DNA from: an uncultured Verrucomicrobiae bacterium
GTDB lineage: Bacteria; Verrucomicrobiota; Verrucomicrobiia; Chthoniobacterales; UBA10450
DNA length: 64,000 nt
NCBI GenBank assembly: GCA_963815455.1
Contig: CAWFGO010000005.1
Location: 1-64,000, forward strand
Reading direction: 5' to 3'
Below, piece after piece: positions 36,001 to 42,000 of this stretch (position 1 is the stretch's first letter; every line of letters starts with the position of its first letter). A program made the position numbers.

Positions 36001-39000
36001 CACCTGGGACGATCGATTGACCGACTATGCGCCGGCGAAGATCGACGAGCGGGCGAAGCATGTGCGCGAGCTGCTTGACAAATTGCGGGCCATGGACGGC
36101 ACGAAGTGGCCGAAGAATGATCGGATCGATTGGATTTTGTTTCGGGCGCAGCTCGAAAATGTCGAGTTCGGCGACCGCGTTTTAAAGTTCGAGCGAACGA
36201 ATCCACAGGTTTACGTGGGCGAATGCACCAGCGGGATATTTTCTTTGCTAAAAAAGGAATACGATACGCCAAAGAAACGCGCGGTGGCAGCCACCTCGCG
36301 CCTCAAGCAAATGCCGGCCCTTTTAAAGCAGGGTCTGAGCAATTTGCAGAGCCCGGTGCGACTCTACGCGCAGCTCGCGATTCAATCGGCCCGCGCTATT
36401 GACCCGCTTTTTACCGGCAGTTTGATGGCGTTGGATGTCGATCTTCCGAAGGCGCAACATGATGAATTGATTAAGGCGCGGGATGCTGCGCTGAGGGCGC
36501 TGCACGATTTCGCCGACGCATTGGAGAAGCGTCTGTCTGCGATGGTCGACTTCGCTCCAATGGGCGAGGCGAATTACAATTATTATCTCAAACACGTCTT
36601 GCTTCTTCCGCTCGACGCTGCGGAAGTGGAAATGATCGGGCGCGTTGAGCTGGCCCGTTATCGAGCGCTGGAAGCGCTCCTGCCCGATCCGAAGCTGGCC
36701 GATCCCGACCCCAAACGCAGCGGCAACATTCCGCCGGATCAACAATCGTTTTTGAAAGCCTACCAAGGCCGGGAGCAGGAGATGATCGACTTCCTGAAGC
36801 AACACAAGCTGATCACGATTCCGGATTATCTCGGCCCCTTTGAAATTCGGCAGTTGCCGGAGGCGTTCAAACCGACCAGCCCGGGCGGCTTCATGAATCC
36901 GCCCGGCGTTTACGACAAGGATCCGACCGGGTTCTATTTTATTCCCACTTACAATCCCGATTCGAAGAACTTTTACATTCGCGCCGCGATCGAAGATCCG
37001 CGGCCGATTCTCGGCCACGAAGGAATCCCCGGGCATTTCCTGCAGCTTTCAATCGCCAATCACCTGAGCGATGAAATTCGGCGCCAGCATCAGGACGGCG
37101 TATTTGTGGAGGGCTGGGCACTCTACGGCGAAGAGATGTTAATGCGCACCGGGCTTTATCCGAACAATTCTCCCGCGCAGGGCCAAATCCTGCGATTGTC
37201 CCGGTATCGCGCGGCCCGGATCGGCGTGGACGTGAACCTGCACACCGGCCGATGGAACTTCGAGCAAACGGTGAAATATTTCATGGAAGCCGGCGGACTT
37301 GACCGCGAGGCAGCGGAGGGAGAAGCGGCGGGGGCGGCGTCAAGCCCGCACCAAAAGATCAGTTACATCGTCGGCAAATGGCAGATCATGAATTTGTTGG
37401 GACGTTACAGGGACCAAAAGGGTGAAACTTTCCGGCTCGGCCAGTTCCACGACGACTTGATCAAAAACGGTAGCCTGCCGTTGTCGATCATCGAATGGCT
37501 GTTGCTCGATGACGACACCGCGATTCAAAAAGCTAACGGGAAAAAGTAACCCATAGTTTCTAGATAAACCATAAGTTAGACCGGCCCGGATTGTGCTTTT
37601 TCACGTTTGGGATGAGCGGGGAATCGCAAAAAGACTGCGCCCTTCAGGCCGCGGCTGGGAGGATTGAGTTGATCGAGGGATTGCAGCGCGCCATCGATCG
37701 CAAATATCGGTACCTGCTCGGGGCGGCAAGAGCCGACTGGCAGCGCCTGTTTGCTGAGAAAGATTCGCGTGACGCCTCCGTGAAAGCGCACATCTCTGTA
37801 GCACTTCCAGCCAAGACGCTGGGATCGCCCGGATCCGGTTTCCTCAAACCGCGCAAGCAGCCGCACCCGAAAGACGCAGGAAAAGGCCAGGTCGCGCGTT
37901 TCGCAAACTGACTCGAAAGTCGGAGGCTGGTAATCCGCCGTTCACTAAGGCGGCGTATGGCGCGCTGCCTACTTCGGCATGCCGACCTTGGCACTGCCGA
38001 GAAACGTGGCGTTCTCATCAACCACCAAACGTGGCGCTTCGATATCACCGCGCAGCGTGCAGCCCGCCTGGAGTTCGCAGCGTTCCGTTGCGGAAATATT
38101 GCCCTCGACGGTGCCGCGCACTTTCATTGATCTAGTCCGGATCTCGCCGCGGATGCGCGCGTGTTCGCCGATAGTGAGTGTTCCGGTGGATTGAATTTCG
38201 CCTTCAACCTCGCCGTCGATCAACAGCTCGTTGTGAAACTTGACCGTGCCCTTGATCGATACGCCCCTCGACAAAAGACCACCGGATCGGCTTTGCATCG
38301 GTGCTCGGGACTGATCCGAGGGTGCCGAGGAATTGGTCGGCTCGTACGAAGTCGTCGGGGATGGCTCTTGTTTGCGGCTTGAAAACATCTGCATTCTCTC
38401 AGTTCCTCCAGGTTTGGCTTTCTGTAAAGCTGATCTTATGCCGACCGGTCCGGTTAATGGTTACAGGGCGATCAATCCGGCGACGCCTTCGCTGCGACCT
38501 TTCGCGCGCCAATTTTCTTCGCCCGCGGTGTTTTCGCGGCAAACTCGAATCCGACTTTGCCGTTCTCGAGTTTTAGATGTGCAGAAAATGGGCGGTTTTT
38601 CTTGGAAATGAACTTGGGCAAAAGATCGGTCTTTCCCTCGGTAATGAGCTTCTGCACCTGTTCCTTCGGAATCTCGCGGTGCAGAATCGTTTTGCTCACG
38701 CGGAAACTGCAGGTCTTTGGCGAGGCTACGGCATTTTCGCAGGCGTAAGCCCGGTCGAGGACATAAATCTGGCCTTTGTGGCAAATGGGACATGGCCCGA
38801 GCGCTTCGTGTTTTTCGGCATCGATCTGAACGTGCCCGTCTTGGGAGCCTTCGCCGAAGTCGAATGCCTGCTTGAATTCCTCCCCCAGTTTTACGATCGC
38901 GCTGAAAGGGCGGCCCATTTTGCTGCGAAAGCGCTCCAACGGTCCTACCTTGCCTTCGGTCAGGAGCTTCTCCATCTCCTCGCGTTCGAAGAGCCGGCCC

Positions 39001-42000
39001 GCCATCGTCTTCCAAATGATCAAGCCGCAGGATCGACACTTAAACGTGCGATAGTCCTCGTCGAAAGGTCCGCCGCCGCACTTTGGGCACTTCACTTCCA
39101 ACGTCTCGAAATCGCCGCTGATCGTGTCGCCCTCAAAGTTTTTCGCTTTTTCGACAATCTCGCGCGTAAACGCCTTGATCTCGGTCATGAATTCTTTGCG
39201 CTTCAACGCGCCTTGTTCCATGCGTTTGAGCTTGGATTCCCATTCACCGGTCATTTCCGGTGAGCACAGCGCCGAAGCGCCGATCCCGCGCAGAAGTGTG
39301 ATCAACGCCATCCCCTTGGCTGTTGCGATCAGGTCGCGTCCCTGCCGATAAACGTAGCCATCGAGAATCAAGCCCTCGATAATCGCGGCCCGGGTGGCCG
39401 GTGTGCCGAGTCCTTTGGCCCGCATCGCTTCGCGTAGTTCTTCGTCCTCGACCAGTTTGCCCGCGCCTTCCATGGCCGAGAGCAGCGTGGCTTCGTTGAA
39501 ACGCGCCGGCGGTTTCGTTTCGTTTTCCGCGACCTCGATGTCGAGAACCTTTGCCGGCTCGTTTGGCGCAATCGCCACCAAAGTCTCGCCGCTTTCGTCC
39601 TGAACCGCGCTTCCCTTGCCGTAAACGGCCAGCCAGCCGGGATCTTTAATGATTTTGCCTTCGGTCTTGAACGCGTCCTTGTCCACGCGCGTGATCCGGG
39701 TGGTGACCTCGAACTGCGCCGCTGGGAAAAAGACGCTGATAAAACGGCGCACGATCATGTCGTAAATTTTCTGCTGGACCTCGTCCAAGCCGTGCGGCGC
39801 GGTCCCAGTGGGCACGATGGCGAAGTGATCGGAGATCTTCGCGTTATTGAAAATGCGCTTGGAAGGCTTGACCCATTTGTTATCCAGCGCCGTGCGCGCG
39901 TGAGGATTGTCGATCTTGCCCAATGTCGACTTGACGGTCGCGAGATAGTCTTCCGGCAAATAACGCGAATCGGTTCGCGGATAGGTCACAACCTTGAAAC
40001 GCTCGTAAAGTTGCTGCGTGATTTGCAGCGTCCGCTTCGCGCTAAACCCGCGGCCATTGGCATCGCGTTGCAAACTGGTCAGGTCGTAGAGCAACGGCGG
40101 CGCCTGCGTTGTTGGTTTGCGTTCCTCACTCGCGACTCCCGTTTTCCCCAGGCAACGGTTCTTGATCTCTTCGGCGGCGGTCTTATCCCAAATCCGCTCG
40201 GCCCGCGCGTCCTCATCGCCATCCTTGGAAAATTCTTCACGGAACCATCGGCCCCGATATTCACCAGCTGCGACCCCGAAATCGCCAAAAACCTCAAAGT
40301 AAGGGCGGGACCTAAAGTGATGAATCTTGTCCTCGCGCTCGGCCAGAATGGCGAGCGTGGGAGTTTGCACCCGGCCGACTGGGGTGAGTTGGAAACCACC
40401 GGTCTTATTATTAAACGCGGTCATCGCGCGTGTTCCATTGATCCCCACCAGCCAATCGCTTTCGGAGCGGCAAACCGCGGCCTCGGATAGCGGGATCATT
40501 TCCTCATTCGAGCGCAAATGTTCAAACGCCGCCCGGATCGATTCTGCCGTCATTGATTGCAGCCACAAGCGCCGGACCGGTTTGTCGATCCCGCTCAGTT
40601 TCACCAGATACCGGAAGATCAGCTCGCCTTCGCGGCCGGCGTCGCAGGCATTGATCAGAAGATCGACATCTTTCCGCTGCATCAAGCGTTTTAGCAGGTT
40701 GAAACGCGGCTTAGACTTCTCGATTGGCCTGAGATCGAATTCTTCGGGAATAATAGGGAGATTAGCGAAGCTCCATTTGCCCCGTTTCACGTCCATTTCG
40801 CTGGGCAAAGCGAGCTCCACCAGGTGCCCGATCGCCGAAGAAATGACAGATTTATCGCTCTCGTAATAGTCGTCGTGTTTCTTAAAACCGCCGAGGGCGC
40901 GAGCCAGATCGCTGGCTACGCTGGGCTTCTCGGCAATGATGAGTGACTTGGCCATGGGGGCAGAAATCGAAGCGCAGTTTTAGGGTAATTGCAAATCGGG
41001 TAGAGCAAGTCGCGGGCGAGGAAGTCGTTAGGAGCTATAAAATTCCAATCCCTATCGGCCAAGATTCAGTTTGTCGATCCTCGATTCGTGATCCAAAAGA
41101 AGGCATCAACCAGAGCACCACCTCATATCAACAGCCGGAGCGGGTCCGGCAAATGTTCGGATCGATCGCCGCCCGCTACGATTTGGCCAATCATCTCCTG
41201 AGCTGCGGGATCGATTTCTACTGGCGCAAACGGGTCGCTGACATCGTGGCGAGCTGGCAGCCGAAGACGATTGTCGATCTTGCCACCGGCACGGGCGATT
41301 TGGCGCTGGCGTTACAAAAGAAACTGCCCGAGGCCGAAATCACCGGCGCCGATTTTCTGCCGGAAATGCTGGAACTCGCGAAGCGCAAAGGTGTGCGCCA
41401 GACCATTGTGGCCGATGCAATGAACCTGCCTTTTCCCGATTCCTTGTGCGATTGCGTCACCGTCGCCTTTGGCTTGCGCAACATGGAGAATTGGAGCGGC
41501 GCACTGCGCGAAATGTCGCGAGTGTTACACGCGGGCGGGCATCTGGCTGTGCTTGAATTCTCGCTACCGACGATGTCGATCTTGCGCGGCATTTATCGCT
41601 TTTATTTGCATCGCGGCCTCCCGTTGCTCGGGTCGATGCTGACCAAACAAAAGCGCGCCTATGATTATCTGGGCGACTCGATTGAAGAATTCCCCAGCGG
41701 CGACGTGATGCTGGCCTTGATTGAAGGGAGCGGATTTAACGACGCGCGCGCCGAAGCGCTCACCGGCGGGATCGTGACGATTTACACCGCGGCGAAATTG
41801 GAATGACGGAGCCTAAGGCGTTGCGCTTGGGCTGGGCGCAGGAGTAGGGGAGGAGGCGGGAGATGCCGCCGCCTGGCTCACCAGGGGCAATTTGAGCGCA
41901 CCGAAATCCGGATTGCTGATGACGAACGTGCCTTGTCGATCATCCACGTGCGCGAACCACATACCGTCCCCGGCAGAGGCGCCGATCTTCAGCGTTCGCG

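Follow-up and report, generated by a model that had tools for sequence, protein, structure and literature searches.

A long-tailed DNA topoisomerase III is the sole type IA topoisomerase of a Chthoniobacterales genome and probably displaced topA in the class Verrucomicrobiae

The window analysed here is a stretch of 64,000 nucleotides from the genome of an uncultured soil bacterium of the order Chthoniobacterales (class Verrucomicrobiae). Its topB gene starts at ATG and is free of internal stops. The following features were assigned at this locus, the two neighbouring genes being given for context only.

38472..40955, minus strand: topB, the genome's only type IA gene, encoding an 827-aa DNA topoisomerase III (PRK08173 family; open reading frame and HMM)
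40569..40943, minus strand: Toprim domain, aa 5-129 (Pfam)
40926-40931, minus strand: E9-K10, the Topo III mark in AEKPS (alignment)
40635-40643, minus strand: acidic motif D105-A-G, instead of DxD (alignment)
39186..40496, minus strand: Topoisom_bac core, aa 154-590 (Pfam)
39978-39983, minus strand: catalytic Y325 followed by P326 in YPRTD (Y325 aligned to Y328 of E. coli Topo III)
39417..39461, minus strand: insert, about aa 499-513, where E. coli Topo III has its decatenation loop (alignment)
39027..39089, minus strand: Cys4 ribbon 1, C623, C626, C640 and C643 (structure model and homologs)
38850..39023, minus strand: Toprim_Crpt repeat 1, about aa 645-702 (best Pfam stretch; limits from the structure model)
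38709..38792, minus strand: Cys4 ribbon 2, C722, C725, C739 and C749 (homologs and a weak structural match)
38541..38714, minus strand: Toprim_Crpt repeat 2, aa 748-805 (Pfam; F782, F790 and F805 invariant)
38475..38540, minus strand: basic tail end, low confidence, pLDDT 57-59 (structure model)
37969..38394, minus strand: downstream neighbour, bactofilin (Pfam)
40943..41806, plus strand: divergent neighbour, UbiE/MenG-family methyltransferase (Pfam), whose true start probably lies further downstream than 40943

The C-terminal end of the protein thus consists of two units, each a Cys4 ribbon plus a Toprim_Crpt repeat, and eight of its last 30 residues are K or R. Each cysteine of ribbon 1, which would presumably bind zinc, is kept in 70 of 86 homologs, those of ribbon 2 in 69-74 of the 86. 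A scan for promoters and terminators gave signals at chance level only.

The preliminary description had classified the enzyme from HMMs and motifs, without a tree, as a TopB with C-terminal Toprim_Crpt repeats; trees now agree with both. Among the NCBIfam models, the window protein scores over the cut and at full length with the PRK08173 Topo III model (NF006032; 1251.9 of 1058), over the cut with PRK07726 (631.7 of 597) and topB TIGR01056 (557.3 of 515.75), and far under it with topA_bact TIGR01051 (192.4 of 456.4). PRK08173 serves naming only, and our literature search found no study of the activity of this family or of its exclusion of TopA. Pfam detects Toprim, Topoisom_bac and two Toprim_Crpt domains, and no match to Topo_C_ZnRpt (PF01396) or Topo_C_Rpt (PF13368). 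A lysine after the first Toprim glutamate and a proline after the catalytic tyrosine are given as marks of Topo III in PMC10969213. Both marks, already named in the preliminary description, were found: AEKPS occurs in the window protein and all aligned clade members as against VESP in 15 of 15 TopAs, and YPRTD in the window protein as against YMRTD in the same 15. Every clade member aligned has both marks and the loop insert, and none of the TopAs does.

The insert at about aa 499-513 may correspond to the decatenation loop. The loop segment is 16 residues longer than in TopA (30 versus 14), and its net charge is -1 in the window protein, between -1 and -3 in most of the clade and +2 in E. coli Topo III; it is also acidic in most of the 49 more distant long TopBs matched. 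The decatenation loop of Topo III is described as positively charged and missing from Topo I (PMC8191776). The type IA Toprim glutamate and catalytic tyrosine are present, with DAG in place of the acidic motif DxD. As DAG is common to 156 of 183 stored proteins and to four of four plasmid TopBs, it is a trait of the lineage and not damage. DAG and the acidic loop were also considered as adaptations to a housekeeping role, and this idea was rejected, since the distant long TopBs have both and the plasmid ones have DAG.

In its core fold, judged by sequence, the window protein resembles E. coli Topo III (TopB, PDB 1D6M, 1I7D; 326 bits over aa 5-606, compared with about 100 bits for Topo I), with which it shares the lysine, the proline and the loop insert. 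It differs from E. coli Topo III in having only 33% identity, DAG instead of DPD, the loop charge, two Cys4 ribbons and two Toprim_Crpt repeats instead of a short tail, and in being the sole type IA enzyme instead of a partner of TopA. The low identity, the replacement of DxD, the acidic loop and the RefSeq name of the Akkermansia glycaniphila protein, merely 'type IA DNA topoisomerase', could be read as signs of a third type IA subfamily in bacteria, or of a diverged or hybrid TopA mislabelled by the models, so that 'Topo III' would overstate the case. We regard this as very improbable in view of the PDB scores, the distribution of the marks and insert, and a FastTree (88 sequences, 649 columns, without archaeal or eukaryotic rows) in which the window protein groups with TopB and a branch of 1.77 with support 1.0 separates off the TopA clade. 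Nor does the tail appear to derive from TopA. By these sequence comparisons, a TopA origin of the enzyme appears largely refuted.

The tail measures about 218 aa, as opposed to about 38 aa in E. coli Topo III, in a length comparison that leaves out L013, L018, L184, L191, L194, L198, L157, L209 and the TopA tails. Capture of a TopA tail was not supported, hhalign against TopA tails giving a probability of 33% at best. With the tail as query, Foldseek returned nothing at E 0.001 and a PDB sequence search with the tail profile nothing under E 0.3. Ribbon 2 shows a weak fold likeness to residues 590-636 of E. coli Topo I (VIA Z 4.2, rmsd 2.8, 41 aligned), the best VIA match of the tail being Elf1 (Z 4.7), and the tail is without the aromatic-x-x-Cys-x-x-aromatic pattern of E. 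coli Topo I. This lack of good structural matches is no evidence for a new fold.

The source genome (3.62 Mb, 7 contigs, 89.98% complete) contains one PF01131 match. A search for a hidden or split topA with a purpose-built TopA profile and with tblastn using four TopA proteins retrieved only this topB. Thus, the earlier claim of a sole type IA gene and no TopA holds for this genome, and the absence of TopA from Chthoniobacterales, likewise claimed, proved to be even wider: TIGR01051 is over the cut in none of 251 genomes of the order (best 235.7 bits; the tally takes in two unpublished genomes, G613 and G598, used nowhere else), TopA is over the model cut in none of 67 genomes of the class Verrucomicrobiae, and it is missing from much of Burkholderiales (see below). 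Among 151 order genomes PF01131 matches once in 136, several times in 10 and not at all in 5; in G038 and G050, the additional full-length copies looked at proved to be short TopBs. All 67 class genomes have the long TopB of the PRK08173 clade; it reaches at least 944 bits in 65 of them and 796 in another, and in the last it is split over contigs. Outside the class, it occurs only in three genomes of a sister-class family, f29, which are also without TopA. That topA is absent merely because the genomes are incomplete bins might be argued from the completeness of the source genome and from the 10 of 251 order genomes without any type IA match. However, the zero counts for order and class include single-contig genomes, sister-class bins are just as fragmented and yet have TopA over the model cut in 127 of 134 cases, and named isolates likewise are without topA. 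At the level of the group this explanation is refuted, and we give it next to no weight.

An either-or distribution was observed in Burkholderiales. Of 151 genomes, 79 have only TopA, 71 only a PRK08173 TopB, one has both and none has neither (80 with TopA and 72 with PRK08173 in total). In the one genome with both, TopA adjoins a VirB4/TrbE gene on a 105-kb contig and is thus mobile. The pattern may reflect few events, since related genomes are not independent. The position of the genes was compared as well. The gene directly upstream of the PRK08173-clade topB is dprA at 27 of 30 loci of the order, at 62 of 78 related loci and, in Burkholderiales, at 17 of 20; directly upstream of topA it is dprA at 7 of 10 loci in Burkholderiales and at 9 of 30 in sister classes. 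The linkage is gone in the source genome itself, and elsewhere in the class, outside the order, it persists at only 2 of 15 loci. At eight sister-class loci topA is followed by a xerC-like gene, as is topB at two loci (L152 and L153). Because topB usually stands behind dprA, as topA does in relatives, the arrangement points to displacement in place.

The window protein is 54-59% identical to Burkholderiales PRK08173 members, and some Burkholderiales topB copies have gained TopA-type ends (PF13368 in L212, SWIB in L218). Nesting in the trees hints at transfer from Verrucomicrobiae to Burkholderiales (L390 is absent from one of the trees showing it). A single Verrucomicrobiae clade is not rejected by the AU test (p 0.25, or 0.29 when f29 is included), and therefore no donor is claimed. 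Long TopBs with Toprim_Crpt on plasmids of Bordetella, Xanthomonas and Pseudomonas share 40-48% identity over 88-97% of the length as well as DAG; they differ in being accessory and mobile, and the tree places them apart from the chromosomal clade (support 100). Having a long tail does not by itself imply replacement: plasmids carry long TopBs, and 12 sister-class genomes have a more distant long TopB alongside TopA.

As to the remaining topoisomerases, the single PF00521 gene of the source genome carries a GyrA box, leaving gyrase as the only topoisomerase besides Topo III; Topo IB is lacking there and present in all three same-family genomes examined. Across 151 class genomes, Topo IB occurs in 17 and a second GyrA/ParC-family gene in 58; in 83, the source genome included, Topo IB is absent and the GyrA family has a single match. 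The 83 take in the single-contig genomes G009, G024 and G278; G121 (5.6 Mb, one contig) shows the same combination. Topo VI was found in none of five genomes tested. The single GyrA/ParC-family gene reported earlier for the source genome is therefore confirmed; for the order it is common (20 of 22 genomes, three of five near-closed ones) and not universal.

The preliminary description concluded that Topo III must do the relaxing work assigned to Topo I. This is the best reading, and the argument by elimination holds for the 83 class genomes in which Topo IB is missing and the GyrA family is matched once. 'Must' is too strong, because part of the class has Topo IB or a second GyrA/ParC-family gene and, according to PMC7140829, Topo IV can take the place of the type IA enzymes of E. 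coli and B. subtilis. Alternatively, TopA could simply have been lost, with Topo III staying a decatenase and R-loop back-up, and supercoiling being held by Topo IV or Topo IB where present and elsewhere by a sluggish gyrase and slow growth. The viability of topA topB mutants upon Topo IV overproduction in both species (PMC7140829), the genomes with Topo IB or a second GyrA/ParC gene and the retained decatenation-loop insert speak for such a loss, as does the C. necator homolog, non-essential by index (6.02 and 5.65, above the non-essential cut of 4.4; parC scores 4.73 and 6.11 on the same index; PMC9166356). The data on essentiality are mixed: the essential set of B. cenocepacia H111 includes 'DNA topoisomerase III' (PMC9166356 S4 Table A), the B. 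pseudomallei list names parE as its sole topoisomerase, and the searched supplement files of PMC5086560 and PMC8770471 hold no topoisomerase rows. Loss alone, however, explains neither the dprA slot of topB nor the mutual exclusion of TopA and PRK08173 TopB in 150 of 151 Burkholderiales genomes, and the 83 genomes have neither of the substitutes. We thus consider simple loss rather unlikely, and that the long-tailed Topo III displaced topA in place and is now the housekeeping type IA enzyme removing negative supercoils is the probable course of events.

With TopA the window enzyme shares the dprA-side position, similar length, cysteine ribbons, a basic tail and, as we infer, the job; it differs in sequence (24% identity to E. 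coli TopA), in both motifs (AEKP/YPRTD versus VESP/YMRTD), in the loop insert and in an unrelated tail. As in Sulfolobus, where it is encoded by 'topA', a Topo III would be the main type IA enzyme of the cell. The Sulfolobus enzyme is distant (111 bits) and acts as a decatenase (PMC10969213), and Sulfolobus acidocaldarius, not being among the controls with a GyrA/ParC match, has no gyrase to oppose. For E. coli Topo III, PMC7140829 describes relaxation of transcription-induced supercoils in vitro, less well than by Topo I, a role as back-up of Topo I and no part in supercoiling control in vivo; its short tail is one possible reason for its long lag (PMC8191776, section 8).

In the displacement scenario, the ancestor of the class Verrucomicrobiae would have exchanged the topA behind its dprA for a Topo III from the long-tailed (Toprim_Crpt) lineage, which has plasmid-borne relatives; the PRK08173 clade would likewise have replaced topA in much of Burkholderiales and in one sister-class family. 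This order of events, as well as the role of the tail, is inferred. As housekeeping type IA enzyme, the Topo III would cut one strand with Y325, pass the other strand through and, like Topo I, remove negative supercoils arising from gyrase and transcription, thereby keeping R-loops in check; in cells without Topo IV, it would probably also help to unlink daughter chromosomes. By analogy with the Topo I tail, the two ribbon-plus-repeat units and the basic tail end probably grip single-stranded DNA, and the long tail would probably offset the slow start known for the short-tailed E. coli enzyme.

Reviews from 2009 to 2024 assign Topo I to all bacteria and describe bacterial supercoiling as universally balanced between gyrase and Topo I, Topo III being optional, and our literature search found no report of Topo I loss in bacteria. 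On balance, we lean slightly towards the view that Topo I is not universal and that the long-tailed Topo III clade took over its locus and job in at least three lineages, namely the class Verrucomicrobiae with Akkermansia, family f29 and the Burkholderia-family branch of Burkholderiales. The enzyme would then be a natural relaxase with a Topo III core, whose tail binds single-stranded DNA, perhaps RNA polymerase, and which, without Topo IV and Topo IB, forms the whole set together with gyrase. Large groups, including the soil-abundant Chthoniobacterales, Akkermansia and the Burkholderia family, are at odds with a universal gyrase/Topo I balance and provide a natural test case for what makes a type IA enzyme relax or decatenate, its tail or its loop. 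Claims of Topo I as a universal bacterial target would need limits.

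In the genome under study (G000; 3.62 Mb in 7 contigs, 89.98% complete; the window is C5:1-64000), the topB gene of the window is the only match in a profile search with PF01131. A second type IA gene was detected neither with a profile made from 15 TopAs nor by tblastn with four of these proteins. The features of the window named here, the last three presumably what their labels, given by eye, say, are:

38472-40955, minus strand: topB, an intact ORF encoding an 827-aa Topo III
28705-30654: cysteine-rich 649-aa protein
31000-31650: small protein with a PEP-CTERM-like end (VPDSG)
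32158-32784: NusG/RfaH-like protein

The TopB protein scores above the cut of three Topo III models but falls short of that of topA_bact (192.4 of 456.4). Among solved structures, E. coli Topo III comes closest to it (326 bits; Topo I about 100). For the window, the closest named homologs belong to Chthoniobacterales, Spartobacteria or Verrucomicrobiae, most of the rows showing 73-86% identity. A Lys after the Toprim Glu and a Pro after the catalytic Tyr, given as Topo III marks in PMC10969213, are both present in the window protein and in all aligned clade members, and in none of 15 TopAs. In a tree of 88 proteins, TopA is set apart by a branch of 1.77 with a support of 1.0. Models, motifs and tree thus agree with the preliminary description, which had assigned the single type IA gene of this genome to TopB and found no TopA.

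Our counts of TopA loss are those of samples and mean 'not found in the genomes searched'; read in this way, none of 251 genomes of the order, two unpublished ones included, passes TIGR01051 (best score 235.7 bits; 10 without any match), and the lack of TopA described earlier across Chthoniobacterales stands. Searched with PF01131, 151 genomes of the order fell into 136 with a single match, 10 with several and 5 with none. The extra full copies in two of them (G038 and G050; loci L072, L074 and L075) are 691-696-aa TopBs outside the clade of the window gene; they have a basic loop, resembling that of E. coli, and are probably mobile. In a phylum sample of 201 genomes with a completeness of at least 90%, TopA was over the cut in 0 of 67 genomes of the same class versus 127 of 134 of other classes. 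In the seven remaining genomes topA was cut by contig ends (three), there was no match (one), or the genome belonged to family f29 (three). When the same 201 genomes were searched with PRK08173, a TopB of this type turned up in every one of the 67 class genomes, in the three of f29 and in none that bear TopA; 12 genomes have, alongside TopA, a long TopB that is more distant (509-613 bits). Family f29 (L070, L071, L073/L076), of another class, is without TopA and has its PRK08173-type TopB near the Burkholderiales/Pedosphaera-like group; in G153 of this family topB is split into two overlapping frames. TopA was likewise over the cut in none of five named records, namely Akkermansia glycaniphila Pyt, an A. 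muciniphila bin, Noviherbaspirillum (complete genome), Herbaspirillum rhizosphaerae and a single-chromosome Verrucomicrobiae bin; by homology, genus group g67 is Akkermansia. In the genomes searched, the absence of TopA is almost certainly real.

Burkholderiales homologs are 54-59% identical to the window topB, some Verrucomicrobiae only 45-50%. Among 151 genomes from the order to which Mycoavidus belongs, the TopA model is matched in 80 and PRK08173 in 72, with both in one and neither in none; as kin share states, these counts do not amount to a statistical test. This either-or distribution is what interchangeable genes look like. In the lone genome with both, TopA scores only 488 bits and lies on a 105-kb contig, next to VirB4/TrbE. 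Within the Mycoavidus family, TopA is over the cut in one of 120 scored genomes (one further genome was left out of scoring), with 488 bits and the same frame length as the other 488-bit TopA, and two 0.2-Mb genomes (G695, G717) gave no type IA match. An 809-aa TopA-like frame of 488 bits was seen in two Burkholderiales genomes, G485 (L394:5244-7670, beside VirB4/TrbE and a transglycosylase) and G771 (L395), and is a mobile TopA.

The commonest upstream neighbour of PRK08173-type topB is dprA. It lies directly upstream on the same strand in 27 of the 30 order loci scoring best in the PF01131 search (one of the misses had no upstream DNA), in 62 of 78 related loci and in 17 of 20 Burkholderiales loci hand-picked from the Burkholderiales screen. 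Ahead of topA, dprA is found in 7 of 10 loci of Burkholderiales and in 9 of 30 of the sister classes, and a xerC-like gene lies 3' of topA in 8 sister-class loci and 3' of topB in two Verrucomicrobiota loci. In other orders of the class, dprA is kept in only 2 of 15 loci, and G278 has a dprA remnant just upstream. The window topB is out of the dprA slot, which most close relatives retain: it is flanked by a UbiE/MenG methyltransferase and a bactofilin, and dprA lies on another contig (G000:C1:712651-713637). Part of the window's own family (L015, L388, L389 and L393, from G149, G084, G648 and G075) has an f19-type TopB instead of the order's type. Members of f19 have three repeats without cysteines, as does L015, and f19-type frames measure about 935-1040 aa. 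Since dprA is still upstream in L388 and in L390 (G117, not placed in the tree), this is likely a second in-place swap, of TopB by TopB.

As to origin, the best plasmid matches are long TopBs of 40-48% identity, and the tree roots them beyond the chromosomal clade. Within the Verrucomicrobiae diversity, Burkholderiales are placed together with f29 and a Pedosphaera-containing group (support 100); monophyly of Verrucomicrobiae is not rejected by an AU test (p 0.25), and neither a donor nor a number of events is claimed from the nesting.

A model of the tail (aa 610-827, from 86 homologs; mean pLDDT 88.6, pTM 0.55) predicts a Cys4 ribbon plus Toprim_Crpt repeat, twice in succession, and then a basic terminal stretch without structure. 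Each of the eight cysteines is conserved in 69-74 of the 86 homologs, position F638 is aromatic in 85 and Y737 in all 86, and four phenylalanines are invariant. Capture of a TopA tail is not supported, with an hhalign probability of 33% at best, and the likeness to the first E. coli Topo I ribbon is weak (Z 4.2). Two Burkholderiales copies carry an added domain, a TopA-type Toprim_C_rpt (PF13368) or SWIB, as in Chlamydia TopA (L212:2646-5564 and L218:1689-4880). The window protein keeps an acidic loop insert, and its Toprim motif reads DAG; judged by sequence comparison these are lineage traits, as distant long TopBs have both too. The available part of a type IA tail survey (PMC9369019) does not name PF13342.

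According to PMC2647321, an omega-like Topo IA and gyrase occur in every bacterial genome, with Topo III as an addition, and PMC7140829 and PMC8191776 place Topo I in all bacteria. Our literature searches, beyond whose reach closed-access surveys lay, found no report of TopA-less bacteria; since the gene has long been annotated as Topo III, an earlier mention is possible. Evidence on essentiality is mixed across Burkholderiales hosts: in PMC9166356 (S4 Table A) DNA topoisomerase III is listed as essential in B. cenocepacia H111 and the C. necator homolog is above the non-essential cut, and one supplement of the B. pseudomallei essential list (PMC3950516) does not name it; all three hosts have Topo IV and may have topA as well.

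As described previously, the window's genome has a single GyrA/ParC-family gene; it encodes a GyrA box. The GyrA-box pattern occurs twice in GyrA, and an 880-codon frame immediately 5' of gyrA (G000:C3:431339-436691) is presumably gyrB. Neither Topo IB nor Topo VI subunit A was found in this genome; Topo IB is present in three of three tested genomes of the same family (L063-L068) and may sit in the unassembled 10%. Across 151 class genomes, 58 have two or more GyrA-family matches and 3 none, and 17 have Topo IB. Three bins of family f66 (G375, G386, G398) lack a GyrA-family match. Gyrase needs an opponent, and in the 83 of 151 class genomes that have a single GyrA-family match and lack Topo IB, Topo III of this type is thus the only known candidate. 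E. coli Topo III shows a fourfold longer lag, which PMC8191776 links to its short tail as one possibility; the aromatic, basic tail of 218 aa would remedy such a lag. The earlier statement that Topo III must do the relaxing work of Topo I is softened here: the lack of any other known candidate in these 83 genomes points to a functional takeover of TopA's role by this Topo III, which we consider likely.
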